Positions 30,514-49,592 of a stretch of 64,000 nt of DNA are shown piece by piece; position 1 is the stretch's first letter; each line of letters begins with the position of its first letter. The notes beneath the pieces were generated by a model that ran no database searches, had not been told where the DNA came from, and saw only the letters and a program-made list of their open reading frames with translations. This DNA comes from an uncultured Chloroflexia bacterium (lineage in GTDB: Bacteria > Chloroflexota > Anaerolineae > Anaerolineales > Villigracilaceae). The position numbers and the translations under genes are program-made. The DNA lies in assembly GCA_963781625.1 (NCBI GenBank), contig CAWAGT010000014.1:11022-75021 (forward strand), in the 5' to 3' direction.

Positions 30514-30834
30514 ATGACTTTAAATACTCGAAAAGTTCTAAAAAAGCTAAAAATGGAACTGCTTCGAATCTGTGGGGAGCAACTTGCCAGCGTCATCCTT
30601 TATGGCTCGCAAGCGCGTGGCGACGCCCGTGCTGACTCAGATATAGATGTTTTGATGGTCATCCAGGGTGATTTTAATTACATTGAACTATTAAAGCGCT
30701 CTGATGATCTGGCAGCCTCTCTTTCTCTTGAGAATGACATTGTTATTTCGCGGGCCTTTGTTTCAGAAAAAGATTATAAGGAAAGGCAAACTCCATTCCT
30801 TATGAATGTTCGCCGTGAGGGAATTGCAGTATGA
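30514..30834 (+). CDS. MNT-type nucleotidyltransferase antitoxin
   Basis: LYGSQARGDARADSDIDVLMV (GS-x9-DxD). Overlaps the start of the downstream HEPN gene. Confidence 0.85.
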   Translation: MTLNTRKVLKKLKMELLRICGEQLASVILYGSQARGDARADSDIDVLMVIQGDFNYIELLKRSDDLAASLSLENDIVISRAFVSEKDYKERQTPFLMNVRREGIAV

Positions 30835-31214
30835 AACCTGAAGCTCAGGAATTAATGGATAAAACGGTGCGAAGTTTGAAAACTGCAGAGAAAATTCTCA
30901 AAGATGGAGAAGTGGACTTTGCCGGTTCAAGAGCGTATTACGCCATGTTCTATGTGGCGGAGGCACTGCTTTTGCAACGCGATCTTTCTTTTTTCAGTCA
31001 TTCCGCAGTAACTGCCAATTTTGGAAAAGAATTTGCAAAGACCGGAATCTTAAATCCCAAATTCCATAACTATCTTATCAAGGCTCAGGACAGGCGCAAT
31101 ATTGGCGATTATGCGATAGGCAATCATCTCACCCAATAGGAAGTTCGCGAAATGCTGGCATGGGCCAAGGAGTTTATCAAAGCAGCCGAGAGTTACCTGA
31201 GGCAGGCGTTTTGA
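30831..31214 (+). pseudogene. HEPN-domain toxin with an in-frame TAG at 31137-31139
   Basis: The HEPN-like helices YAMFYVAEALL and QDRRNIGDYA precede the TAG. The same frame then reads EVREMLAWAKEFIKAAESYLRQAF before a TGA at 31212-31214. Confidence 0.6.
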
Positions 31215-36314: not shown

Positions 36315-37184
36315 TTACCCCGCGAAGGCGAAGGCCGGCATCCCTTCCACATTGGTCTCCAGACGGAACACGCCGCCGGTCAGCGGATACTGCGCCAACG
36401 CCTCTGCGTCCAGTTCCTTGCGGGCGGAGGTGAGGTAGAGTTCGTTCAGGTTCTTACCGCCGAATACACAGCAGGAGACGTTCTTCGCAGGGACGGGGAT
36501 CTGTTCCAGCAACTGGCCGGTAAGCGGATTCCATTTGGTGACCTGTGCGCCGCCCCACATGGCGATCCATAGATTCCCCTGGGTGTCGGAGGTCATGCCG
36601 TCGGGCCAGCCCAAAGCTCCGGGCACGGAGACCGCCACCCTTCGACCTCCGAGCGCGCCCGTTTCCAGATCATAATCAAAGGCCTGAACCTGGCGCGTGG
36701 GCGTGTCGATGTAATAAAAAGTTTTGTAATCGGGGCTCCAGGTCAGGCCATTGGAGATGGTGATATTCCCCAACAGTTTTGTTGTTGAACGTCCATCGCA
36801 GGAGTAGAGCGAACCGGTTGGCTCTTCCTCGTTGAGATTCATCGTTCCTGCGATGAAGCGGCCGCGCGGGTCGCACTTGCCGTCGTTGAAACGGTTGGTT
36901 GACGGTTCATTCTCCAGGTAGATGAGAGGCGTCAATTCAAGGGACTCCAGCTCGAGGCCCGCGAAGTTGAGGCGTCCTTCCGCATCGGTCAACGCCAAGA
37001 CCAGGCCTCCGTTTTCACGCGGGACCAGGCAGCCGATCAAGCCATCCAGTTGAAGCAGGATGTTCCCTTCGGCATGGACGCGCTTGTCCAGAATATCCAG
37101 CCAGTAGAGGGTCTGCGTGTGCGCGTCCCAGACCGGGCCTTCGCCGAGACGTGCTTTTGCATCGTAGAGCAGTTCTGTTTGCAT
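36315..37184 (-). CDS. SMP-30/gluconolactonase/LRE-family protein
   Basis: LGEGPVWD...LYWLDI, FNDGKCDPRGRF and PDGMTSDTQGNLW motifs. Confidence 0.88.
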   Translation of the reverse strand: MQTELLYDAKARLGEGPVWDAHTQTLYWLDILDKRVHAEGNILLQLDGLIGCLVPRENGGLVLALTDAEGRLNFAGLELESLELTPLIYLENEPSTNRFNDGKCDPRGRFIAGTMNLNEEEPTGSLYSCDGRSTTKLLGNITISNGLTWSPDYKTFYYIDTPTRQVQAFDYDLETGALGGRRVAVSVPGALGWPDGMTSDTQGNLWIAMWGGAQVTKWNPLTGQLLEQIPVPAKNVSCCVFGGKNLNELYLTSARKELDAEALAQYPLTGGVFRLETNVEGMPAFAFAG

Positions 37185-37226
37185 AGTATGTTTGCGGTTC
37201 GCAGGGGCGAGATGACCTCGCCCTTA

Positions 37227-38180
37227 CTAAAACCAATCCCTTTTATAGAAGATGAAGATTGCCAGGGCGGTGAGACTTAATGAAATGCCCAGCACGGTGA
37301 AAAAGGCCAGCGGATGCTGTTCGCCGGGCAGGCTGACGTTCATGCCATAGAAGGCGGCCACCACCGCCGGCACATTGATGATGATCGTGATGGCGGCTAG
37401 GGCCTTCATCACGCCGTTCAGGTTGTTGGAGATGATCGAGGCGAAGGCATCCATCATGGAGGCAAGGATCTCGGTGTTGATGCTGGTCATCTGGATGGCC
37501 TGCTGGTTCTCGGTCAGCACATCTTCGAGCAGATCCGAATCCTCTTCGTAATAGTTGAAGATCTGTGTGCGTTGGACGCGCTCCATCATCACTTCATTCG
37601 AGCGCAGGGCGGTGGCAAAGTAGGTGAGACTCTTCTGGTACCTGAGCAGTTCCATCAACTCACGGTTGCGCGTGGACTTCTGCAACTGGTCCTCGATGGC
37701 CTCGGTGGTGCGGTTGATCTCCCGTAAATGTGTAAGATAGCGCGTGGCCGTTTCGAGGAAGATGTACAAGGCGAAGCGATAACGCTTGCCGGTTTTGAGC
37801 AGACGATATTTGCCGTTGGACAGCACCGTGAACATGTCCTTGTCGTAACGGCAGATGGTGACGATGGTATTGCCTTTGATCATGATTCCCAGCGGAATGG
37901 TGGTGTAGGGGATGTCGCTCTCCGGCTGGCTGTGCGGGATGCGGATCAGGATGAAGGTGTAGTCTTCGTCCCGTTCGATGCGCGGCATTTCATCCAGATC
38001 GAGGGAATAGTTCACGTAATCCATGTCGATCCCCCAACCGACCAGTTTTTGCGTTTCCTCGGGGGTGGGGTCGACCACTTTGACCCAGGTGCCATTGGCC
38101 ATGGAGTCGAGTTGTGCGAGTCCCTGCTCGGTGGTTTTATAAATGGTGAGCATGACTACCTCCTTGCGTGATTTCATCAC
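37227..38180 (-). CDS. corA: CorA-family magnesium/cobalt transporter
   Basis: C-terminal YGMNV signature followed by two TM segments. The exact start is uncertain (several ATG codons at the 5' end). Confidence 0.88.
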   Translation of the reverse strand: MMKSRKEVVMLTIYKTTEQGLAQLDSMANGTWVKVVDPTPEETQKLVGWGIDMDYVNYSLDLDEMPRIERDEDYTFILIRIPHSQPESDIPYTTIPLGIMIKGNTIVTICRYDKDMFTVLSNGKYRLLKTGKRYRFALYIFLETATRYLTHLREINRTTEAIEDQLQKSTRNRELMELLRYQKSLTYFATALRSNEVMMERVQRTQIFNYYEEDSDLLEDVLTENQQAIQMTSINTEILASMMDAFASIISNNLNGVMKALAAITIIINVPAVVAAFYGMNVSLPGEQHPLAFFTVLGISLSLTALAIFIFYKRDWF

Positions 38181-38540
38181 GCAGGGAGCGCGCTTAGCTC
38201 CTCCGTGATGTCAATTTATGGGTCTTGCGCCGCGTACCGCGCCCGACGGCTGGTACTGGGCGGCTGGCTCTCGCTGGAACCTGAATCGTTCTCTTCCTTG
38301 GGAAACATCAATAATTATCCTTGCCACATTAACAGTGCAAGTATTTTACGCCCGTTGAGGGGATTCTACAACGATATGGGGAGTGATTCGTAACCCCGGC
38401 TGTTTTCCACGATTAATCACAGGGCAACTTTCATTGTTGAGTCTAATAACACTGTTCTCTCCCTTACTCCGCTGACCAGGAACTCCCTATATTCCTTTTG
38501 AAATATATGGCATACTTACACAAAGTAAACAGGAGCCATC

Positions 38541-39121
38541 ATGTTGCCAGATTTTCCAAAGGAAAAAGCAATACTCTCAAAGTTTTGGAATGAGTATCTT
38601 GTTCGCAAACACCGGGAGCTTCTAGGTTATTTTGCGACAATTCCTTCTTTTACAATTCATGAAGGGGACAGATGGAAAATCGAACGACCCGATGGTACTA
38701 AGTCCGAGAAGCCGTATGAAGAACTATCAAGTGGATTTACCCTTGACCTGAAAGAAGTACCTGATTTAACTCCTGAAAAGATTAGGGCAAAACTGGACAA
38801 AGTGGCTGAGAATGCTGCATCGTTGATGATCCAGGGTCTTTTTAGAGAGATCAAACAAGCAACATAGTAAACGCAAAAGGACAACCGTTTACCAAAGAGC
38901 ATTTTCTGGAATTGTTAGACAAAAAAGAATCAGACTTTGCCCCTGATGGGGAATTGATTGCTCCAGCCACAATAATGCATCCAGATATGTGGAAGGCTAA
39001 TGAGGCGAAGTTTAAGGAATGGGAACAAGATAAGGGATTTACAACTCGGCACGAAGAAATAATTAATAAGAAACGGGAGGCGTGGCGTGTAAGAGAGGCT
39101 CTTAGAAAACTGGTTGATTAG
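38541..39121 (+). pseudogene. island gene 1, unknown function, frameshifted near 38846-38870
   Basis: The frame-0 ORF ends ...LFREIKQAT*. The frame-2 ORF is open from 38846 (..NIVNAKGQPFTKEHFLELLDKKESDF...). Its stop overlaps the TTG start of island gene 2. Confidence 0.5.
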
Positions 39122-39789
39122 CGTCAATGAAAAATCTTTTCAAATACCATTCTGCCAATTATTAACTGGAGAAGGTTATCGAGTAGTTCACATGTCGCGT
39201 CATGGACCTTTTAAATCTGGAAAAGATATTTTAGCGATTGACCCAGAAGGAGTTCCTTGCGCCTTTCAACTAAAAGGTAGTACTGGAAAAATCTCACAGA
39301 AAGAATGGGCTAAATATATTGATCAAGCAGTTAGATTGGTTGAAATACCAATCGTGCATCCTTCTGTTGATGAGAAAAAGCAAAGAAATGTAATCATCAG
39401 ATAAAGGGCGAACAGTCTCATTGTTAGCTTTTTGGGCAATCTCCGAACCAAACAAAGGTGATTTCACCGCAGAAATTGCTCAAAGCGCCAGAATTTGTGT
39501 TCGGGCTATTTCTGACCAATACAGAAAAAGCAAAGAAAAGTGTTTTTTGTGACAAATGGAGAACTCGATGAAGAAGTACGACTTGAAATAAGTGACCGAA
39601 ACAGAGAATGGGAAAGACGCGGTTTTCCCACTTTGACAGTGGTGGTTAAAGGAGAACTTCTTGCCAGATTTTTGAGGCTACATGATAATTTATGGCCCAA
39701 GGAACTTGTTGCACACAAAACATTACTTGAATTATTCCTAGAAGATAGTGCTGGATATTTATTGATATTTCAATAATTAATGTTCCACT

Positions 39790-40290
39790 GTGGCGATCTT
39801 GTGCGCTAATAGCGGCATGAGACCATTTGGAACATCCGAACAATTAGCGGGTCGCCGGGAGCGCGCCTTGGGTCTGCTGCGACGGGGTCTAAGGCCAAGC
39901 GAGGTTGCAAAGCAGGTAGGCGCGACGCGGCAAACTGTGAACCGATGGCAGCGGGAATCTCGGTCATCCAAACACAAGTCCAAATCGCAACCGCGTGAGG
40001 TAGGGCGTCCCAGTCGTTTATCGGCCGCTGCCCAGCGGCGCTTGACCAGTGCATTAAAACGTGGAGCGTACGCCAATGGCTATGCCGAAGATTATTGGAC
40101 GTTGGACCGCATAGCGCATTTGATCTGGGATATGTTTGGCATCCGTTATCGTGTGAGTGGTGTTTGGTACGTGATGCAGCGCTTGGGGTGGAGTTGTCAA
40201 AAGCCCCAACGTCGGAGTTACGCGCGGGACGAGCCCGCGATTGCTCATTGGAAACGCTACGCCTGGCCGCAGCTAAAAAAAGTGGCTTGA
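39790..40290 (+). CDS. IS630-family transposase, N-terminal HTH part (orfA)
   Basis: LRPSEVAKQVGATRQTVNRWQ (HTH) and WTLDRIAHLIWDMFGIRYRVSGVWYVMQRLGWSCQKP (winged helix). Ends just after the A7 run. Confidence 0.85.
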   Translation: MAILCANSGMRPFGTSEQLAGRRERALGLLRRGLRPSEVAKQVGATRQTVNRWQRESRSSKHKSKSQPREVGRPSRLSAAAQRRLTSALKRGAYANGYAEDYWTLDRIAHLIWDMFGIRYRVSGVWYVMQRLGWSCQKPQRRSYARDEPAIAHWKRYAWPQLKKVA

Positions 40291-40852
40291 GCTTCATGCG
40301 CGGCTGTTTTTACTCGACAAATCCGGCTTTTCGGAGGTATCGCCACTCAAGCGCACATGGGCGTTGCGTGCTCATACACCTACCCGATCCACTAGCCTCA
40401 AACACAATGAGCGACTGAATCTGATTGGCGGCATCGGCGTGACTGCGGCTAAACGCAAGATCAAATTGCATCTTCGGTCCTATCGTAAATCGATCAGTGG
40501 CGAGGGAGTTATTCGTTTCCTCAAGCACCTGTTGAATTCCAACAGAGGAGCGATCGTCCTGGTGTGGGACCGACATCCCATTCACCGGCGCGCCAAGGTC
40601 AAAGATTTTATCGCACAACACCCACGCCTTCATGTCTATGAGTTCCCTACCGCTGCTCCCGAACTCAACCCCACAGAATTCGTGTGGACCCAACTCAATG
40701 AATACGTTACGGGTACTGCACCGCATAACGCCACTGAACTTCGGAATTTTGTCTTCGCCGGTATTGCTCGAACCCGCCGTTCCTCAAGTCGTCTTTGGGC
40801 TTGTATCCAGGCATCGGACCTGCCTTGGAAAAGATCAAGTTTGGAACATTAA
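40277..40852 (+). CDS. IS630-family transposase, DDE catalytic part (orfB, +1 frame relative to orfA)
   Basis: The frame is open from 40277 inside the A7 run. Motifs: LFLLDKSGF, VLVWDRHPIHR and EFPTAAPELNPTEFVW (D, D, E regions). Confidence 0.8.
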   Translation, partial: KKWLELHARLFLLDKSGFSEVSPLKRTWALRAHTPTRSTSLKHNERLNLIGGIGVTAAKRKIKLHLRSYRKSISGEGVIRFLKHLLNSNRGAIVLVWDRHPIHRRAKVKDFIAQHPRLHVYEFPTAAPELNPTEFVWTQLNEYVTGTAPHNATELRNFVFAGIARTRRSSSRLWACIQASDLPWKRSSLEH

Positions 40853-42016
40853 TTATTGAAATATCAGTAGATAGACCAAAACTTGCTAATTTTCTCTTGG
40901 ATGTTCTTCAGGGGATCAATAAAACAAATAAAGCAGAGCAGGCGCGTTCGTTATCAAGCTTGGCGCTGATAACTGAATATGCTATTCATCTATATGTTGA
41001 AAAGAAAAACCATGTTGCTGTTATTGAGGCTTGGACCATTTATCTGGCTGCGATTGTTTCATTTGCAACAAAGCATAAATTCCAGAAAAGAATTGGAAAT
41101 CAGATTTTCATCTTGCTCTCGAGTCCATTGACCAAGCATTTTTGGGTTTAATTGAAGTAATTAAAGAGCGAAGGCATTTTGTGGAAGGTAATCCCATGGT
41201 TGATTGATGCACCTTTTTATCGTGGCAGGATAAAAAGGTTAGCCGGATTGCTGGCCTCATTTGCCATTTGGAAGAAATCGGTTGACGACAATTGGAAAGA
41301 TGAAGACATCCTTTCATTCATTAATGAAAACCAGAAGCATTTTCACTTGTGGGGAGAAGCAGTTGTTCCTCAATTACTTTCAATAACATGGTTTTTACGT
41401 CCTAATGGAATTGAACCACGGGCCTCTAGGCTGCTCGATGCGATAGCGCGAGGAATTTGCACTAATAATCTAACTCCAGAAGGCAATGGACTTGCCGATG
41501 TAGTAATCAATCAAACAGGACTTTCCGAGACCATTCAAAAAGAAAACTTTAAAGGACGTTCTTATACTTTGGAAGGTATCATTCACATATTGACGCGGTG
41601 GGGATGGAGAGGAATTCTTGAGGAACTTTGGCCTCAATTCACAAGAATTGATTATGTGGAATATAAGACCGATAAACCTTGGGAATTTTGTCATTGGCAT
41701 ACTGAAACCGGAAAATTGATTGTAAACAGACCAAAATTTCCACAAAGCTGGCGTGAGCTACAAGAAGAAGCTGATGCGATTGATGTATCCTATATTCCCA
41801 ATGTGCTACTTGAAAATCCGTCAATTCTGTTGCTGTTTCTAATTGTCTATCCCCATCGTTTCACAAAAGATGTCATAAAATTCTTGGATGACAAGTTCAC
41901 AGATTTATGAAACGTTCCCGACAGCAAAACAACTATCAGGGATGTTTCATCTCTAAATATTTCCCTACGACTTCGGAAACCTACTTACTATCTTCGCTGC
42001 TGCTAATATAAGTTCT

Positions 42017-42376
42017 TTAGCCGTCATCTGCCTCACACAAAACCTTCCCCTCTTTGACCACATCGCGCAGGAACCAATAGCCTATATCCAAGCGCTCTTG
42101 CAATCGTTTTGGAGTTTGCACTATTAAATCCGGGCCAAACATTACGTTCAGATGGCAATGAATCTCCAGGGATTGTTGTACTTCCCTGAGCTGGGCATCC
42201 ATGACGACCAGCAGATCCACGTCACTTTCGAGGTGGGGATTTCCGCGGGCATACGAGCCAAACAAAATGATCTTTTGCGGCTTGAACTTTTCCACGATCT
42301 GTTCCACCACCTGGTCAATGGCTTCCTGCGGAATGCGCTTGCGTTCATCAATTGTTGGAACTTTTACAACAACCAT
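42017..42376 (-). CDS. MNT-type nucleotidyltransferase, orphan (no adjacent HEPN ORF)
   Basis: ILFGSYARGNPHLESDVDLLVVMD. Confidence 0.8.
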   Translation of the reverse strand: MVVVKVPTIDERKRIPQEAIDQVVEQIVEKFKPQKIILFGSYARGNPHLESDVDLLVVMDAQLREVQQSLEIHCHLNVMFGPDLIVQTPKRLQERLDIGYWFLRDVVKEGKVLCEADDG

Positions 42377-42401
42377 CGTGAGGTAATTATACAGCTACTT
42401 T

Positions 42402-42438
42402 AAAGACAGAGCCTCCCAATTCGGGAGGCTCTGTCTTT
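42402..42438 (-). terminator. rho-independent terminator downstream of the esterase gene
   Basis: 16-bp perfect stem AAAGACAGAGCCTCCC / GGGAGGCTCTGTCTTT with a 5-nt loop. Confidence 0.6.
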
Positions 42439-42477
42439 CCAGGGGATGGTGTTGGAGCCAATCGCAAAACTAAATCA

Positions 42478-43353
42478 TCATTTTCCCTGAAAGATAAATC
42501 TCAGCCCGCGGTTGTAGGCTTCGGGTTTGTTCCCCGCGTGACGCTCCCCGGCGATGACGCGCGTCTCCATCTCCAAGGCGGTGTAGTTGCGCTTGTTGAG
42601 AACCCAGACGAATTCCTGTACGGGCCGCGCCATCTCCTCCAACTCACCGACGCTGAGGAATAACCTGACCGGCAAGTCCTGGTGAGCGCTCGCGTAGTCA
42701 GCTTCCTGTTGGAAGGCGAAGCGATCCCCATAGGTCACGATCGGACTGCCGATGATATATCCGCTGAAGAGGCTCGGGTCGCTGAACATGGCATACAAAG
42801 TGAAGGTGCCCCCGAAGGAACTGCCCAATAACACTCTGCGCGCCGGATCGATCGGATAGTTGGACTCGACGAAAGGCATCAACTGCTCTTTGATGAAGCG
42901 CAGAAACTTGGGCGCATCCCCCGAACCGGAGATGAATAGATCGTGGACCGGAGTGTAGTCCATGGCGCGCAAGGCTCCGTAATCGGGTTGGTCCCCCGAA
43001 TAGGTAATGCCAACGATGATCATCTCCGGCACGAACTTGTCGTAGAGCAATCCGCCGTAGACGGAATCGAGCAGCTTGAAATCCCATTGTCCATCGAGCA
43101 CGTAGAGCACAGGATATTTCTTCCACTTGCTGGGCGTGTACCCATCCGGGAGACGGACGTAAATATCGTAGTCCCGGCCGGTCGCCGAGGACTTGAGTTG
43201 TCTCACCTCCGTGCTGGGCATGCTCACCCGCTCAAATTCCGGAGTCTGCGTCTCGGGGGCCCGCGCTGATGAAGTTCCCGGCGCGCAGGCAATGATCGTT
43301 TGAACAAGCAATATGGCCAGCATGAGGGCGGTCGTTCGGGATGAAAATCTCAT
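42478..43353 (-). CDS. secreted alpha/beta-hydrolase (putative esterase, PF00756-like), probable lipoprotein
   Basis: YPVLYVLDGQWDF and GSSFGGTF motifs. LVQTIIAC lipobox-like signal. AAGGAA RBS before the ATG at 43353. Confidence 0.75.
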   Translation of the reverse strand: MRFSSRTTALMLAILLVQTIIACAPGTSSARAPETQTPEFERVSMPSTEVRQLKSSATGRDYDIYVRLPDGYTPSKWKKYPVLYVLDGQWDFKLLDSVYGGLLYDKFVPEMIIVGITYSGDQPDYGALRAMDYTPVHDLFISGSGDAPKFLRFIKEQLMPFVESNYPIDPARRVLLGSSFGGTFTLYAMFSDPSLFSGYIIGSPIVTYGDRFAFQQEADYASAHQDLPVRLFLSVGELEEMARPVQEFVWVLNKRNYTALEMETRVIAGERHAGNKPEAYNRGLRFIFQGK

Positions 43354-43486
43354 CGTTGATTTCCTTCTATGGAAATCATATAGCGAATCCCCCGCCGTTT
43401 CATGTGTCATTTGTCTTAAAAAGGGTGCAGGAAATTTTTCCTTTTAGAGTCCCACAAATCAAACTCATCCCCCGACTTTGGCCTTG

Positions 43487-43957
43487 CTAAATCCAACGAC
43501 GGACTCGGGTGCAATATTGTTCGTACGCCTCCGCAAAGACTTCCTTCAATCCCCTTTCCTCCAAAGGGATGACAATCCAATTGAGATAAGCAAGTACAAA
43601 GGGCAGAAGAATTACCGGCCAGATTTGAGTCAAAAGTCCGGCCTCGCCCAGGTACGCCAGCGTTAAACTGACATACATCGGGTTGCGGCTCAATCGATAC
43701 GGTCCCTAGGTCACCAGATTGGTGGAGATTTCACCTGGCGTGGTGGTGGTGCTGACCTTATGAAAGATATACAAACTCCAACCCGCAAACCCGGCGCCGA
43801 TTACAAACAGCAGAGCCCCGGCGAGCTTGACGATGGAGATCCATTGTAGTGATTGAATATTCCAGGGCAATAGAACCTGCAAGCCGGCGCCGATCAGATA
43901 AACCAGCACAAAGACCCACGGCACCGGAATACGCAAAAGAAATTTAAAAGGATTCAT
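43487..43957 (-). pseudogene. isoprenylcysteine carboxyl methyltransferase-like (ICMT/PEMT-family) membrane protein with an in-frame TAG at 43706-43708
   Basis: Reads ...GEISTNLVT*GPYRLSRNPMYVSLTLAYLG. The stop sits inside the conserved LVTxGPYxxxRNPMY motif, and both halves are in the same frame. Confidence 0.7.
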
Positions 43958-43983
43958 TTGTCTATGGTTATCCTGTCAAAAAA

Positions 43984-44847
43984 CTAATCTTTCGGCGGTC
44001 CCATGAAAATGCGATCGTGCATTTCTGTCAGGGGCCAATCACCCTTCCCATCCCAGCCAAAACGCCAGGGACTGATGCCCTCCACCCACCAGGTCACGCC
44101 CGCCTTTTCATAGGCGGCTACGTCAGCCAGATCCTCATCGCGATTCTTTGCACGCTTGTTGCGTTTGAGGACCAGATCAAACGGCGCCTCCGCCGGCCGA
44201 TGCTGGTAAACATAGTTGTGGATGTCCCTGAATTGCTCCGGGCTAAGATCCCGCATGAAATCATCCCGATTGAGGGGGAAAACTCCCTCCCAGCGTGCCG
44301 CCCGCCGGAACGGCGCTTTGTTCGGCCATGATCCGGCAGCCCAGATCGGTATGCGAGGCTGCTGAACGGGAGTCGGCATGAACAGGGCCTCCTTGATCTG
44401 ATAATGTTCGCCGGCATAGCTGAACGGCTTCCCCTGCCACAAACCGGCCAGGACTTCCAATCCTTCATCCAGCATGGCGGCGCGCACCTTGAGATCGCTC
44501 GGCTCACCCAGATAATCGAACTCTTCCAGGTTCACTCCCAGGCCCACTCCCAACGTGAGGCGGCCATTCGACACATGATCAATGGATACGGTCTCGCGCG
44601 CTAATTTCCAGGGACAACGACGCGGCAAAGGGGTCACCAAAGTGCCCAGACGGATGTGCTCGGTATTCAGTGACATGGCCGTCAGCGCCACCCACGGATC
44701 GACCAGGCCATCCGGCCAGTCCGTGAAGACGTGATCCCACAGAAAGAAACCTTCCCAACCGGCTGCTTCAGCCTCCCGCGCCATGGCGGCGAGCAGGCGG
44801 GCATCTGCATAGGGCCCAAATATTGGAATGTACAGGCCAAAGCGCAT
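43984..44847 (-). CDS. LLM-class (luciferase-like) flavin/F420-dependent oxidoreductase
   Basis: MRFGLYIP...AEAAGWEGFFLWDH and LGVGLG motifs. Confidence 0.8.
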   Translation of the reverse strand: MRFGLYIPIFGPYADARLLAAMAREAEAAGWEGFFLWDHVFTDWPDGLVDPWVALTAMSLNTEHIRLGTLVTPLPRRCPWKLARETVSIDHVSNGRLTLGVGLGVNLEEFDYLGEPSDLKVRAAMLDEGLEVLAGLWQGKPFSYAGEHYQIKEALFMPTPVQQPRIPIWAAGSWPNKAPFRRAARWEGVFPLNRDDFMRDLSPEQFRDIHNYVYQHRPAEAPFDLVLKRNKRAKNRDEDLADVAAYEKAGVTWWVEGISPWRFGWDGKGDWPLTEMHDRIFMGPPKD

Positions 44848-44906
44848 CTCAACCTCCTTTTGAATGAGCGGCCCAACTACGAATTACCGATTACCAATTA
44901 CAACTA

Positions 44907-46122
44907 TTACTTCACCAAGCTCATAAACAAGATGCCAGCCAGCAAGGCCATCAATGCGCCGAAGAAGAACGGTGCGCTGGCGCCGAAGCCCGTCCACGTG
45001 CCGAGGCCCTGCCACAACAAGCCTGCGATCAACGAAGCAGGCAGCACGGTGATGCCCACCGCGGCGTTGTAGAATCCGTAGGCGGTGCCGCGCTGCGTAT
45101 CGGGTACCAGGTCGGCGACCAGGGCGCGGGCGGTGCCCTCCGTGGCAGCGTAATACAATCCATACAATGCGAACAGTGCCCAAATTTCCCCACCGGTTTT
45201 GGAAAACGCGAATCCCAGATACACCAATCCATAAGCCAGCCAGCCGCCCAGGATCACCCGTCTGCGTCCCACTTTATCCGACCACGCCCCGAGCGGCCCG
45301 GCCATGATCGTATACAACACGTTGAAGGTCAGTGACATGCCCATCACTTGCAGGATGCTCAAGCCGCGCTCCTGTCCGCGTAATAAGATGAAGGCATCGG
45401 AGGAATTGCCAAGCGTAAACAAGATGAGCACGAACAAAAAGTATTTGAAGCGCGGATCTACATCCTTGAGAGATAGACGCTTCATCTCTACCCCGCCGCC
45501 GGCTCCCGTCACCTCGACCGCACCAAAGGCCAGAACCAGTACCGCCAACACGCCCGGGATGATGCTGACCAGCACGATCAACTTGAAGGTGTCGAGTGAA
45601 AGTTCCAAGGCCTGGGCTTGAGTTCCGCCAGACGATAAAGGCGGCAATCCCCAATCCGAGGAAGGCGCCGAAGGTGTCACTGGCGCGGTGCAGGCCGAAG
45701 GCCAGTCCGCGCTGCTTGTCATCGATTGAGGCGGCGATCAAGGCATCGCGCGGCGCGGTACGGATGCCTTTCCCGATCCGGTCCGCCACCCGGACTCCCA
45801 GCACCCAGCCCCAAGCACCCGCGAAATATAAAAGGGGCTTGGTCAACGTCGAGAGGGCATATCCGACCACAGCAAAAGGTTTGCGCTTCCCGAAGCGGTC
45901 GGACAATGCGCCGAAGAAGATCTTCAATAAGCTGGCGGTCGTTTCGGCAATGCCTTCGATCAGACCGATGACCGCCGTCCGCACGCCGAGGATGTTTGCC
46001 AGGAAAAAAGGAATCAGGTTCAGCAGCATCTCCGAAGAGATGTCGTTGAGCAGCGACGTGGCGGACATCACCCACACGTTGCGCGGCAGGCGTTGCAGGG
46101 CTGGTTTATTCATTATCTTCAA
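44907..46122 (-). pseudogene. MFS transporter split by a frameshift near 45620-45635
   Basis: N-terminal half (..GALSDRFGKRKPF..) lies in ORF 45274-46122. C-terminal half (..GAWSDKVGRRRVI..) lies in ORF 44907-45722. The two overlap in different frames. Confidence 0.75.
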
Positions 46123-46131
46123 TCCTTTCTC

Positions 46132-47469
46132 TTAAGCGGTTTGTGTTTGGGCGGCGCGGCGTAACAGCAGGAAGCCGATGATACCTGCCAGAAGAGAGGC
46201 GCACAGGATCCCAGTTTTGGCGCTCTCCAGGGCAGGCGATTCGCCAAAGGCCAGATCTGAAATAAAAAGTGACATGGTGAAACCGATGCCTGCCAGCCAA
46301 CTCACGCCATAAATATGCCACCAGTTGACATCGTCCGGCAGCTCGGCCAGTTTGCTTTTCACGATCAGCCAGGAAAACGTGCTGATGCCAACCTGTTTGC
46401 CGATGATCAAACCAAGAATCACTCCCAAGGCAACCGGGTCGGCGATGGCAGCCAGGAAGTTGTTTCCGATGATCACCCCCACGTTGGCCAGGGCAAAGAA
46501 AGGCATGATCCCATAAGCCACCCAGGGATGCAGGGAGTGTTCCAGTCTTTGCAGGGGCGTTTCCGCGTGTTCGGCCAGTTCTTCCAGGGTTTGCAGGGCG
46601 GCACGCTGAGTCAGGCTGAGATAGCCATCGCCTTGATCGGTGCTTTCAAACTCATCCAGCACTGCGCGGCTATGCTTGACGAAATCCTTGTCGTTCAGGC
46701 GCGCTCGTGAGGGAATGGTCAGGGCCAGCAATACACCGGCAATCGTGGGATGGACTCCGGAATACAGAAAAGCCAGCCACAGGCCGATACCCAGGATCGA
46801 ATACACCAGCGGGTTGCGAACGCCCAGCAAATTACAGAGGATCAGCAGCATGAGGAGCATGGCTGCCACGCCCAGTGTGAGCCAGACAATCTCACTTGTA
46901 TAAAAGAGTGCGATGATCAAAACTGCGCCGAGGTCATCCACCACCGCCACCGCCGTGAGAAATACTTTCAAGGAAACCGGTACACGCTTGCCAAGCAACG
47001 CCAGCACGCCCAGCGCAAAGGCAATGTCAGTGGCCATCGGGATGCCCCAGCCGGCACTGCCGGCTTTATCATGATTGAAGGCCGCGTAAATCAGTGCAGG
47101 GAACAGCATGCCCCCCACCGCGGCGGCCACCGGCAGGATGGCTTTGCGGAAGGAGGCCAGTTCACCGATCAAAATCTCGCGCTTGATCTCCAGGCCGACC
47201 ACAAAAAAGAAGATTGCCATCAAGCCATCGTTGATCCATAGGATCAGCGGTTTGGACAGTTCATAATTTCCATAACCAAAGGTTAATTTATCTTTCCAGA
47301 GGGCATGATAACTTTCGCTCCATAGCGAATTTGCCCAGATCAAGGCGATGATCGTGGCAACCAGTAAGAGAATGCCGCTGGAGGCTTCCTGTTGCAGAAA
47401 TTCCTGTAACGGTGATAGAAGTTTTTCTACAGGGGTGCGTTCCACTAAAATCTTGTTGTTCTTTGTCAC
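46132..47469 (-). CDS. nhaA: Na+/H+ antiporter NhaA
   Basis: VAVVDDLGAVLIIALFY (the DD pair) and the overall NhaA-like TM layout. Confidence 0.88.
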   Translation of the reverse strand: MTKNNKILVERTPVEKLLSPLQEFLQQEASSGILLLVATIIALIWANSLWSESYHALWKDKLTFGYGNYELSKPLILWINDGLMAIFFFVVGLEIKREILIGELASFRKAILPVAAAVGGMLFPALIYAAFNHDKAGSAGWGIPMATDIAFALGVLALLGKRVPVSLKVFLTAVAVVDDLGAVLIIALFYTSEIVWLTLGVAAMLLMLLILCNLLGVRNPLVYSILGIGLWLAFLYSGVHPTIAGVLLALTIPSRARLNDKDFVKHSRAVLDEFESTDQGDGYLSLTQRAALQTLEELAEHAETPLQRLEHSLHPWVAYGIMPFFALANVGVIIGNNFLAAIADPVALGVILGLIIGKQVGISTFSWLIVKSKLAELPDDVNWWHIYGVSWLAGIGFTMSLFISDLAFGESPALESAKTGILCASLLAGIIGFLLLRRAAQTQTA

Positions 47470-47544
47470 ATCAAACTCCCGATTTTCTTTTGATATTACC
47501 TCCGATAAAGAAAGGCGGAGGTTGATCCTCCGCTACTGTGGGAA

Positions 47545-47970
47545 TTACTCCTCACCTTCATCGCCGGCCATGCCCGGTTGTTCAACCTTGAGCACCTCTC
47601 CGTGCATATCGATGATGATGCGGAAGCCCATCATTCCCAGATAGGCGCGCAAGTCCTCAGGCAATCCGGTCTGCATGAGTTGATCGAATTGCTTATCGAT
47701 ATTCTTCAATTGTTGTTCGATGGCGGCTTTCGTGAACACGTCCTCCTGACCGAGCATTTTGGCAGTCTGCTCTGATAAGAAGTCTTCACTGCCTTTCATC
47801 ATCTCGGCCATTTGATTGAGCACGGTCCGGTCCACCTGTTCGGCGGGGATGTGACGGCGGAAACCCGCGTCATCCACCACGTAACAGGGTTCATCGCCCA
47901 CCAAAGCTGATTCGGCGGCATTTCCAAATTCATCGATCACGAGTCCGGCAAAAAGAGGTGCGCGGGGCAT
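47545..47970 (-). CDS. hypothetical acidic protein
   Basis: 141-aa ORF. Its start overlaps the upstream stop (TAATG). No family recognised. Confidence 0.5.
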   Translation of the reverse strand: MPRAPLFAGLVIDEFGNAAESALVGDEPCYVVDDAGFRRHIPAEQVDRTVLNQMAEMMKGSEDFLSEQTAKMLGQEDVFTKAAIEQQLKNIDKQFDQLMQTGLPEDLRAYLGMMGFRIIIDMHGEVLKVEQPGMAGDEGEE

Positions 47971-48551
47971 TAGCTGCTCTGTCTCCCTTCGATGGCCGCC
48001 AGCAAAATGCCTGCAGCAATGCCGATGCGGCGATCCAATAGATGGTTTAAGTCCATGCTGAAGCCCAGGTTCAATTCATAACGGAACGGGTTGAAGTTTT
48101 GTTTTAAGTCCGCGACACGCGTGGTGCCGAAGGTAATGTCATAGTTCTGAGACAGCCATGAGCCGAGCAGGAGCCGGCGCAAGAGCGCCAACCTAACGCT
48201 GTCCTCGAATAATTTTCCGACCAGGCGATCGTTCGCGTCCAGCACTTCCCATTCATCACGCAGGATCGATTGCAAATCCCGGCGGCGCAACACACCAACC
48301 TTTTGATTGGTCAGCGCGTCCACCACATCGTAGGCCGCGGAGAAATCGATGATCTGGCGCGCCTGAATGCTGAGCACTTCCTGTGACTTGTTCTCATCCG
48401 AGAACACGCGGATGTCCTCGCGCAGGCGAAACATCTTTTGTTCGCTGAACATGACGAGGTCCCCCAGCGGATCATAGAAACGGAACTTGCCTGTCAGCGC
48501 GATGGCCTGTCGCTTGAGGAGATAGGTTGGAAATTGGAAGACGGGATTCAT
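47970..48551 (-). CDS. hypothetical protein, possibly tubby/LOR (scramblase-like) fold
   Basis: 193-aa ORF. The pattern of short beta-strand repeats is reminiscent of LURP-one-related proteins. Weak call. Confidence 0.4.
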   Translation of the reverse strand: MNPVFQFPTYLLKRQAIALTGKFRFYDPLGDLVMFSEQKMFRLREDIRVFSDENKSQEVLSIQARQIIDFSAAYDVVDALTNQKVGVLRRRDLQSILRDEWEVLDANDRLVGKLFEDSVRLALLRRLLLGSWLSQNYDITFGTTRVADLKQNFNPFRYELNLGFSMDLNHLLDRRIGIAAGILLAAIEGRQSS

Positions 48552-48557
48552 GTTCTT

Positions 48558-49592
48558 CTAAAAGATGTGAACTTGCGTGCCCTGGCCCGGCAAATGGAGA
48601 TAATCCACATCCGGCGGGACGACCGGCTTGGTCCAGCGATACAAAAACTTGGCGGACTCTGATGGCAGGTTCACACAACCGTGGCTGCGCGGACGACCAT
48701 AATCGTTGTGCCAGTAGGTGCCGTGGAAGGCATTGCCCGCGCCGGTGAAAAATGAACACCAGGGCACGCCGGGCAAACTATACACGGTCTCATCTTCCAA
48801 CGCGTCGCCTTCGTTCGTCATGTGCACCGAAGGCCCTTTGTGATATGTAAGGAAGTCGCCCGTGGGTGTATCCGTGCCCTTGACTCCGCTGGAACAGCGT
48901 TCCGAGAAGACCAGCTTCTCGCCTTCGAAGGCGGTCACCAGTTGCGTGCCCAGATCGACAACGATATGTTTTTCCTCATCCGGCACATCCGGAGAAAGCG
49001 GAGCCAACTCCTCGGCCGGTACCAGGCGCATGTCGTGCGCGGCAACGTAAAGGGATTTCTTGAGATACAAATCGTAGATCTCGTACCAGATACTTTTTTC
49101 CTCGCGCGTGACGATGGCTCTCTTCACCCAATGTGTCGTACCATAATAAATGCGATAGCCGCGCTTGGCGTACACATAAGGATCTTTCCGCGTGTCACTG
49201 AAAGGGACAACGATCTCGCCGACCTGTCCTTTTTCAGGGATATTAAACAATGGCTTTTGATAGTTTGTCTCCACGGGCTGGACCCAGCCTGAGTAGGTGT
49301 ATCCATCCCCGTTGAGCTGGTACCACGTGCGATTATAAGGATTGCCCTCTTCGCCATTCTCATCGATCGAGGTGATGTCCACGACCTGGTCCGCGCCGAA
49401 GAGATGGAGCTTGTTGGCGTTGAAGGCCGGGTCATCATAAAGAGGAATGCCGCTCCAGGTGATGCGTCCCTGTTTGGGTGTTGTCGTCTCAGCCAGGGCG
49501 CGGTCGAGGCGCAGATCGCCTAAAGCAAAAGCAAGCGAGCCGGCGCTGGCGAGTTTGAGAAATTCGCGGCGAGAGATTTGTGGATTGAGCAT
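48558..49592 (-). CDS. L,D-transpeptidase (YkuD domain) with a Tat-type signal
   Basis: SRREFLKL twin-arginine motif. Catalytic FHGTYWHNDYGRPRSHGCVNL. Confidence 0.88.
   Translation of the reverse strand: MLNPQISRREFLKLASAGSLAFALGDLRLDRALAETTTPKQGRITWSGIPLYDDPAFNANKLHLFGADQVVDITSIDENGEEGNPYNRTWYQLNGDGYTYSGWVQPVETNYQKPLFNIPEKGQVGEIVVPFSDTRKDPYVYAKRGYRIYYGTTHWVKRAIVTREEKSIWYEIYDLYLKKSLYVAAHDMRLVPAEELAPLSPDVPDEEKHIVVDLGTQLVTAFEGEKLVFSERCSSGVKGTDTPTGDFLTYHKGPSVHMTNEGDALEDETVYSLPGVPWCSFFTGAGNAFHGTYWHNDYGRPRSHGCVNLPSESAKFLYRWTKPVVPPDVDYLHLPGQGTQVHIF

Follow-up and report, generated by a model that had tools for sequence, protein, structure and literature searches.

Here we analyse a stretch of 64,000 nt from an uncultured Chloroflexia bacterium of the Villigracilaceae (contig CAWAGT010000014.1 of assembly GCA_963781625.1, positions 11,022 to 75,021; referred to as the window), in which an AT-rich cassette between corA and an orphan MNT-type nucleotidyltransferase gene carries the remains of two overlapping genes, which we call A and B. 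Judging from the genomic context of its relatives, we consider that the A-B pair is probably an undescribed nuclease-based defence module acting against phages or plasmids. What is seen across the family is an obligate two-gene unit with a conserved Mrr-type active site, a large and likewise conserved helical domain, horizontal mobility and a frequent association with immune loci. In this genome both genes are dead; they carry seven independent lesions, including the insertion of an IS630-family insertion sequence (IS), and the cassette is a non-functional fossil. An earlier reading of this DNA from its letters alone (hereafter the sequence-only reading) had proposed a possible uncharacterised defence system caught in a decayed state. 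That proposal is supported, and none of the three findings that it had named as speaking against it was made: searches of Pfam, NCBIfam, PHROGs, PADLOC and the PDB and with Foldseek place neither A nor B in a known non-defence family, the nuclease motif lies in a PD-(D/E)xK core, and the homologs are co-located and found in variable regions.

A strictly linked two-gene family

After repair of the lesions, B of the window has 514 aa and is up to 80% identical, over 99% of its length, to intact proteins of about 527 aa (P0001); the length of about 510 aa given by the sequence-only reading falls short of these intact homologs. Repaired A reaches 75% identity with P0121 along its entire length (100%), the A family having 198 aa. 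The homologs of B carry no Pfam domain and no name other than "hypothetical protein". An exhaustive hidden Markov model search, with clusters counted at 50% identity, gave 1,464 cluster representatives of the B family at E<=1e-3 and 724 at E<=1e-30, and the architecture of B is very stable because the top 150 representatives are all full length. When one genome per species was considered, 121 relatives were found among 185,579 species. The bacterial hosts include Chloroflexota, Poribacteria, Acidobacteriota, Bacteroidota, Proteobacteria, Firmicutes (Neomoorella and Desulfovirgula), Verrucomicrobiota and Planctomycetota, and the archaeal hosts include Bathyarchaeia and Nitrososphaerota. The family is rare but very broadly scattered, which is the pattern of horizontal transfer. 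At most Chloroflexi loci elsewhere the pair is likewise low in GC content compared with its flanks, for example 0.36 against 0.595 in L018.

Intact syntenic pairs, which the sequence-only reading had recommended to look for, were found, for example in Neomoorella stamsii DSM 26217 (NZ_PVXL01000048.1), in Massilia sp. 2TAF26 (NZ_JBFRFV010000017.1) and in a Chloroflexi MAG (VGNF01000105.1) whose copy is 80% identical to that of the window. A lies directly upstream of B with an overlap of 29-35 nt in 78 of 80 loci, and the two loci without an upstream A are cut by contig ends; clustering of all neighbouring open reading frames (ORFs) revealed no third conserved gene. Conservation within the overlap extends to both products, the C-terminal end of A as well as the N-terminal beginning of B, and the overlap is therefore dual-coding. 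An overlap of this length with both frames conserved indicates coupled translation and a fixed stoichiometry of the two products.

A very distant A/B pair lies on the plasmid pdjl-6-4 of Rhodococcus qingshengii (L094; NZ_CP096567.1, 10597-12685), where the same 35-nt overlap is found. The hhalign probabilities of this pair against the family are 99.2 for B and 88.5 for A, and its B, which RefSeq names "restriction endonuclease", matches the Pfam profile Mrr_cat (PF04471) with 22.8 bits, above the gathering threshold of 21 bits. On one side of the pair are genes for an OLD-type ATP-dependent endonuclease, an RNase_T exonuclease and a fragment of an AAA ATPase, and on the other side a hypothetical gene and a gene for a DEAD/DEAH helicase of 1167 aa; the pair may be part of a larger defence island on this mobilizable plasmid of 517 kb.

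Predicted folds and active site

B was modelled with AlphaFold2 from an alignment of 102 sequences (predicted local distance difference test score, pLDDT, 91; predicted template modelling score, pTM, 0.85), and its N-terminus is a predicted nuclease domain of the Mrr-type PD-(D/E)xK class. The modelled topology is alpha-beta-beta-beta-alpha-beta (helices 15-28 and 71-86; strands 32-36, 48-51, 57-63 and 101-106), in which D47 stands at the start of beta2 and Q61-L-K63 in beta3. The domain carries E15, E43-S-G-K-D47 and Q61-L-K63; H39, E43, G45, D47, Q61 and K63 are invariant in the 102 sequences, and E15 is conserved in at least 90%. When the domain was compared by Foldseek with the PDB, NucS (2vld, probability 0.96) and Card1 (6wxw, probability 0.97) were aligned locally over about 100-130 columns; in BFVD the matches were phage proteins named "restriction endonuclease" or of the Mrr type, with probability 1.00 and a root-mean-square deviation of 3.3-4.1 A over 111-151 columns. 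The profile Mrr_cat spans the whole domain and gives 12.6 bits to repaired B and 17.2 bits to the N-terminal domain of P0001, both below the threshold, and 7 of 27 family members match it at E<=1, the best at 0.0011. The model topology, the Foldseek matches and the passing score of the distant Rhodococcus homolog together bear out the earlier placement of the motif in a PD-(D/E)xK core. The residue that had been picked as E20 is E29 in full-length numbering and falls outside the columns conserved at 90% or more; the conserved acidic residues are E15, E43 and D47.

The remaining C-terminal part of B, about 370 residues, is all-alpha in the model and contains scattered polar and aromatic residues that are invariant (N222, E228, W230, D287, R294, W335-G-E337, Y386, S412, W475 and P509-H-R511). 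It has no significant match in Pfam, NCBIfam, PHROGs, PADLOC, the PDB sequence search or Foldseek, and with the whole B model Foldseek gave no global match, the helical domain having only low-probability matches to tetratricopeptide repeats or solenoids. The model of A, which is of moderate quality (pLDDT 79), consists mainly of helices together with a single hairpin, and A has no significant assignment in Pfam, NCBIfam, PHROGs or PADLOC. The sequence-only reading could not assign gene 1 or the last ~400 aa of gene 2 to a family, and these profile, PDB and Foldseek searches gave no assignment either.

Several weak matches were set aside. The PDB profile matches of full B or its N-terminal domain to RecA, calbindin, glutathione S-transferase and a lipase are chance matches only, and isolated matches in helical regions to LinB-like_C (0.11), CheD and a Mycoplasma lipoprotein were judged spurious. 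The same holds for Csx1 (E=0.0019, 15.8 bits), which falls on a helical stretch and is the only match of B in PADLOC-DB v2.0.0, including its HEC and PDC models; A had no match there.

Genomic context in other genomes

With neighbouring genes identified by PADLOC, copies of the pair are found inside known immune systems as well as beside them. In L031 the pair lies between HmaA and HmaB, and in L053 it lies inside a type I restriction-modification (RM) operon in the order HsdM-HsdS-A-B-x-HsdR. It adjoins Hma genes in L038, L040, L055 and L063 and type I RM genes in L015, L045, L060 and L062. A type ISP/IIG RM enzyme is encoded directly upstream in 9 loci according to the cluster assignment and in 11 according to tblastn. 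The order RM enzyme-A-B, with gaps of about 40-55 nt, is seen in L024, L025, L028, L029, L033, L035, L036, L060 and L068, and by tblastn also in L037 and L067; the RM enzyme and the pair may have been transferred together as a single island, or they may be functionally linked.

In a wider view, RM or Hma genes occur within 6 kb of the pair in 18 of 81 loci and within 10 kb in 21 of 79, in at least six phyla. Further defence genes are present among 123 other immediate neighbours, namely PDC-S01, mad8, PtuA, HEC-01, BrxL, HerA, a type III restriction endonuclease, a CBASS cyclase, PDC-S11, AbiD and a type I specificity subunit. One copy (L009) is cargo of an integrative and conjugative element (ICE), near AbiH and an Eco57I-type RM enzyme. 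Toxin-antitoxin (TA) genes are close to the pair in L005, another copy adjoins PhdYeFM-ParE, and a further one lies within a polyketide synthase/nonribosomal peptide synthetase cluster. The pair thus recurs in defence islands and is embedded in known systems in unrelated taxa, which is the operational sign of a defence role, as judged against a crude control described below. According to Payne et al. (2024), a single embedded instance is sufficient to suspect such a role; the portions of the supplements available to us mention neither Mrr_cat nor the RefSeq hosts of the pair. Co-location of the homologs and their presence in variable regions, whose absence the sequence-only reading would have taken as refuting it, are observed in the 78 linked loci of 80 and in the many loci beside or inside RM, Hma and other defence genes.

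Comparison with known systems and proposed mechanism

The closest known relatives of the nuclease domain are Mrr enzymes. B shares with Mrr_cat the PD-(D/E)xK core, the acidic-x-G-x-D loop and Q-x-K, and the best structural matches of its domain are phage Mrr-type enzymes. In Mrr, however, the nuclease is C-terminal, whereas in B it is N-terminal and no winged-helix DNA reader accompanies it; B has instead a 370-aa all-helical domain without a known fold and an obligatory partner gene of 198 aa. The likeness to Card1/Can2 and NucS/EndoMS, whose nuclease cores are locally superposable on B (probability 0.96-0.97), concerns the superfamily core only: B has neither the CARF domain of Card1/Can2 (the match covers 97-99 columns of the nuclease core) nor a cyclic-oligoadenylate context, and it lacks the N-terminal domain of NucS.

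As for function, the nearest analogues are Avs2, which combines Mrr-like effectors with a helical sensor, and Upx, which combines a sensor with a PD-(D/E)xK nuclease and has no NTPase; both detect phage terminase (PMC13601566). Like B, they join a PD-(D/E)xK or Mrr-like nuclease to a large domain that is mostly helical or unannotated, and B resembles Upx also in having no NTPase. They show no sequence homology and no detected structural homology to B and are functional analogues, not relatives. Upx exceeds 1,100 aa with a C-terminal nuclease, whereas B has 527 aa and is always accompanied by A; Avs/STAND sensors have a central STAND NTPase, whereas no STAND or P-loop NTPase match was found in B, whose model consists of the nuclease and helical domains only. 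The genomic signature of the pair in L031 and L053 is that of the Hma-embedded (HEC) and the RM-, BREX- or DISARM-embedded (PDC) candidates of Payne et al. (2024), although no HEC or PDC model of PADLOC v2.0.0 matches A or B and the embedded cases of the pair are in metagenome-assembled genomes (MAGs). With type II TA operons the pair has in common a small upstream gene overlapping a larger effector gene, compactness and mobility, while A and B are much larger than typical components. The family would belong to the nuclease-effector conflict systems and is not categorically new.

If the pair is a defence module, B would be the DNA nuclease effector. Its helical domain, alone or together with A, would restrain the nuclease until a cue derived from the invader is sensed; the Mrr-type domain would then cut DNA, and the infection would be stopped (restriction) or the cell killed (abortive infection). 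We further propose, only tentatively and with some doubt, that the pair represents a widespread and so far unrecognised class of two-component immunity without an NTPase, in which a new all-helical fold, with or without A, directly senses an invader molecule and frees the nuclease, and which is carried from phylum to phylum, among bacteria as well as archaea, inside the Hma and RM systems that harbour it as cargo.

Weighing of alternative explanations

Several observations weigh against a defence role. No experimental data on defence were found, and no family member has a named function. No homolog was found in 50,697 phage records, and 72,556 plasmids gave one distant match only. About 60% of the loci have no recognisable defence neighbour, and many neighbours are housekeeping genes, such as those for an aminotransferase, PurL, methylmalonyl-CoA mutase and ribonucleotide reductase. 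The 9-11 loci with a type ISP enzyme are mainly from Poribacteria, with a Bacteroidota MAG also among them, so that they are not independent. A control with five RM/Hma queries gave 21 of 79 A/B loci (1.38 Mb) against 0 of 80 corA loci (0.48 Mb), a crude and biased contrast: it is overstated because the queries derive from the tested loci themselves, and the control loci all belong to one lineage and are shorter. Because PADLOC v2.0.0 has no model for A or B, the family was not flagged earlier as a candidate. The model of A found no structural match by Foldseek, and the roles given to A and to the helical domain are pure inference.

Another explanation of the same unit is a selfish TA or addiction cassette, in which B is a DNA-cutting toxin and A its coupled upstream antidote, and which is kept because its loss kills the cell, without protection from phages. 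We regard this as unlikely but as a possibility to be taken seriously: the two genes are strictly linked, the small one standing upstream and running into the larger nuclease gene, the cassette is compact, AT-rich, patchily distributed and often inserted alone amid housekeeping genes, TA genes are close by in L005 and in the window, and copies are interrupted in several genomes, as expected for a costly toxin. Yet the 198-aa A protein has no antitoxin-family match and neither A nor B contains a helix-turn-helix (HTH), ribbon-helix-helix or AbrB antitoxin domain or matches a recognised toxin family, and B, with its extra conserved domain of 370 aa, is much larger than typical type II toxins. 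The embedding in Hma and type I RM operons is also a pattern tied to defence cargo, although many TA modules also defend and the two readings are not cleanly separated. The pair might otherwise act as a type IV enzyme of the Mrr kind, the helical domain and A recognising modified foreign DNA that is then cut directly, with no abortive infection and no sensing of proteins. The nuclease domain is indeed closest to Mrr_cat, with the Q-x-K variant of the motif as in the profile matches of this family, NCBI calls a distant homolog "restriction endonuclease", and RM systems are often adjacent. We nevertheless hold this to be quite unlikely, though possible, because no reader of modified DNA was detected, be it SRA, YTH, a winged helix as at the N-terminus of Mrr or anything comparable; neither A nor the C-terminal 370 aa of B has a Pfam, NCBIfam or structural match to a DNA-reader domain. 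The C-terminal domain is moreover unlike any DNA-binding fold in the PDB, the domain order is the reverse of that of Mrr, and a strictly linked partner of this kind is not normally needed by type IV enzymes.

TnsA-type and homing nucleases also have the PD-(D/E)xK fold, which counts in favour of another role, in which the pair would help a mobile element to move or persist instead of providing immunity, in the manner of a homing-type or transposition-associated nuclease and its accessory protein. That the pair turns up as a self-contained unit in settings without relation to one another, an ICE and a plasmid among them, and that its composition is foreign, fit such a role; however, the pair is not accompanied by an integrase, a transposase or terminal repeats, the gaps to its neighbours are often below 60 nt and leave no room for the ends of an element, and a tyrosine recombinase is adjacent in just 2-3 loci, so that we consider this role very unlikely. 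Still less credible, indeed extremely unlikely, is a housekeeping function in DNA repair or recombination like that of NucS/EndoMS. It is suggested by the Foldseek alignment of the nuclease domain to these enzymes, but the pair is patchy, with no more than about 121 of 185,579 species genomes carrying it, is absent at the site in 80 close relatives, has a foreign GC content and has decayed freely here without replacement, and B is without the N-terminal DNA-binding domain of NucS. A defence module is thus the explanation that we prefer for the A-B pair.

The decayed copy in the window

The cassette of the window is distinguished by its base composition (Table 1). In a sliding window, GC content falls from 0.54-0.59 in the flanks to 0.39-0.41 across about 38250-42000, and within this stretch it rises again to 0.52-0.55 at 39750-40750. 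By piece, it is 0.41 for gene A, 0.37-0.39 for the three pieces of gene B and 0.40 for the spacer between B and the MNT gene, compared with 0.54 for corA, 0.56 for the esterase gene and 0.53 for the whole window; the IS within gene B has a host-like value of 0.53. The visible drop between corA and the MNT gene noted in the sequence-only reading is therefore genuine, at 0.37-0.41 against 0.54-0.56 in the flanking genes. The ORF listing has, on the forward strand, fragments of two co-oriented, overlapping genes at the coordinates which that reading had assigned to them (38541-39121 and 39114-41910). Both frames and the overlap hold, whereas the start of B is not TTG 39114; from the GTG used instead, the overlap with A has the same geometry as in the intact loci.

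Table 1. Features of the cassette, its genes and lesions, and its flanks (coordinates in the window)
Feature	Coordinates	Strand	Basis or remark
AT-rich foreign cassette (A, B and short flanks)	38400..42016	+	GC content; IS of host-like GC inside; between corA and orphan MNT gene
Gene A pseudogene	38541..39121	+	ORFs 38541-38867 and 38912-39121 in different frames
Gene B pseudogene	39087..41910	+	True start GTG 39087; overlaps end of gene A by 35 nt
Region coding for the first ~150 residues of B, a predicted Mrr-type nuclease domain of the PD-(D/E)xK class	39087..39689	+	Interrupted by the 150-bp insertion
Premature stop, codon 2 of B	39090..39092	+	TAA; CAA (Gln) in homologs
150-bp insertion in B	39392..39541	+	131 bp and second copy of a 19-nt direct repeat; brings in a stop
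IS630-family IS, about 1106 bp and duplicated TA target	39762..40869	+	Inverted repeats, Pfam, TA duplication
1-nt deletion in B, -1 frameshift	41083..41090	+	CAGGAAAAG to CAGAAAAG at 41085/86; homologs CAG GAA AAG
4-nt tandem duplication in B	41202..41209	+	GATTGATG; frameshift, creates TGA
Junction of 21-nt in-frame deletion in B	41494..41505	+	At 41499/41500; loses PYHGLGE including invariant Tyr386
corA	37227..38180	-	Pfam CorA, 1.8e-53; left flank, conserved backbone gene
Orphan MNT-type nucleotidyltransferase gene	42017..42376	-	Pfam NTP_transf_2, 2.7e-12; right flank

The lesions were mapped by alignment to intact homologs. In gene A, a DNA alignment with L013, L015 and L007 shows a deletion of 16 nt at about 38859/38860, which causes a frameshift and stops at 38865-38870. 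Gene B has six lesions: a stop at codon 2, the 150-bp insertion, the IS630 element, a 1-nt deletion, a 4-nt duplication and a 21-nt deletion. Its start reads GTG TAA GAG AGG CTC TTA GAA AAC TGG where the homologs have MQERLLENW, and the C-to-T change that makes codon 2 a stop also changes Ala to Val in the overlapping frame of A. The 1-nt deletion was recognised by three-frame translation and alignment to homologs (TKHDIQEKNW). At the 4-nt duplication, frame 0 reads EGNPMVD and then a stop, and frame 1 picks up at DAPFYRGR, as in V-D-x-x-FYRGR of the homologs. The loss of Tyr386, invariant among the 102 sequences, was read from columns 401-420 of the B alignment.

Removal of 39392-39541 recovers the frame and the alignment to homologs, and when the IS is removed as well, the frame of B is continuous except for one short excursion to another frame. 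The repairs proposed in the sequence-only reading were accordingly sound: its deletion of 39389-39538 is equivalent to ours and restores the frame, its deletion of 39762-40869 is correct, and the frame fixes that it placed at about 38860, 41085 and 41200 correspond to the 16-nt deletion, the 1-nt deletion and the 4-nt duplication. The decay that it described is real, though its list of lesions was incomplete, the codon-2 TAA and the 21-nt deletion having been overlooked.

The 150-bp insertion is bounded by a direct repeat of 19 nt, AGAAAAAGCAAAGAAA[T/A]GT, whose copies at 39373-39391 and 39523-39541 are 150 bp apart according to the repeat search; it is too long for a usual target duplication. 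The ends of the 131-bp insert show only a weak inverted match (CAGATAAAGGGCGAACA / TGTTCGGGCTATTTCTG). This insert is not repeated elsewhere in the window, lacks clear terminal repeats and matches nothing in Rfam, and its folding is not significant (z = -1.4).

The IS insertion claimed in the sequence-only reading was verified and assigned to a family. The element has terminal inverted repeats of 32 nt with 94% identity, within 39756-39787 and 40842-40873, and Pfam recognises its transposase in two ORFs, an HTH part at 39790-40290 (HTH_33, 1.8e-20) and a DDE part at 40364-40852 (DDE_3, 2.8e-14). TA is present at both ends, and precise excision with one TA kept restores the frame of B. With a DDE_3 transposase, an N-terminal HTH, terminal inverted repeats and a TA duplication, it is an IS630 element. 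The transposase is split exactly at an A7 run (40274-40280), the +1 frame opening right after the run (PQLKK / KWLELHARLFLLDKSGF), and this split could be a simple frameshift mutation or could serve expression by slippage. The window contains the IS only once.

The same lesions are found in two more public assemblies, L011 (99.3-100% identical across the cassette) and L012 (99.8%), and they are thus biological and not assembly errors; as L011 and L012 come from the same population, they say nothing on the age of the decay. The possibility that L011 is a second lineage of 92% identity sharing the decay was ruled out by segment-wise comparison, which gave 99.3-100% in the cassette and a few divergent patches. 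For most segments of L011 (ENA ERZ25039539, contig_24406) the identity to the window is 99.3-100%, but it falls to 77-86% over the SGL gene, corA and a major facilitator superfamily (MFS) gene (window 36315-38180 and 44907-46122). Several of its genes are in fragments, recG being in three pieces; this suggests either recombination between strains or a long-read assembly that is noisy or chimeric. A or B genes are split also in L043, L044, L045, L066, L081 and L093, and these may be sequencing errors rather than decay, several of the genomes being long-read MAGs.

The slot upstream of corA and the neighbouring genes

We compared the site with 80 metagenomic contigs of relatives whose CorA is 80-91% identical. 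The synteny corA-(SGL)-acyltransferase downstream is kept in the 80 relatives, and in none of them are A, B, the MNT gene or the IS present upstream of corA. The slot of the relatives is either empty or taken by PMT_2-type glycosyltransferases, alone or together with an acyltransferase, by a GGDEF protein or by a family-B DNA polymerase. The far side is again conserved, with homologs of the window genes at 47545-49592 and the MFS gene. Because the MFS side and the corA side are conserved and the content between them differs, the MFS-corA region is a variable slot, in which the A/B cassette is cargo specific to this lineage. The cassette is foreign and was acquired horizontally, as its low GC content and the lack of a copy at the site in the 80 corA-syntenic relatives show; the foreign composition and accessory nature asserted in the sequence-only reading are borne out by the same two facts. 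In the window, including 42377-47545, the slot contains a luciferase-like oxidoreductase gene, genes for small membrane proteins, an esterase gene, the MNT gene and the A/B cassette.

Only 106 nt separate the stop of B from the stop of the MNT gene, after which no HEPN partner gene is found. A second AT-rich islet, at 30514-31139 between a DegV gene and recG (GC content 0.43-0.47), carries an intact overlapping TA pair of MNT (106 aa) and HEPN (102 aa). The TA-type neighbours that the sequence-only reading had cited as context are thus present, the orphan MNT gene beside the cassette and the MNT-HEPN pair 7 kb away, although the argument built on them is weak. Scans for promoters and terminators in the cassette gave results no better than those with shuffled sequences. 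As the window has no tRNA gene and 37000-43500 has no Rfam match, there is no tRNA-linked integration site.

Significance

For this genome the meaning of the finding is modest, as the cassette is dead here and, as a fossil, does no more than mark the variable slot upstream of corA. For the family it is larger. The A-B pair has no model in Pfam, NCBIfam, PHROGs or PADLOC, and a few distant members are loosely named "restriction endonuclease"; at the same time, it bears the signature of a defence system in its strict two-gene architecture, its invariant nuclease site and its place in or near known systems. If validated, it would extend the catalogue of nuclease-based immunity by a sensor fold and a partner protein that are both new, and several hundred pairs of genes now registered as "hypothetical protein" would become annotatable.

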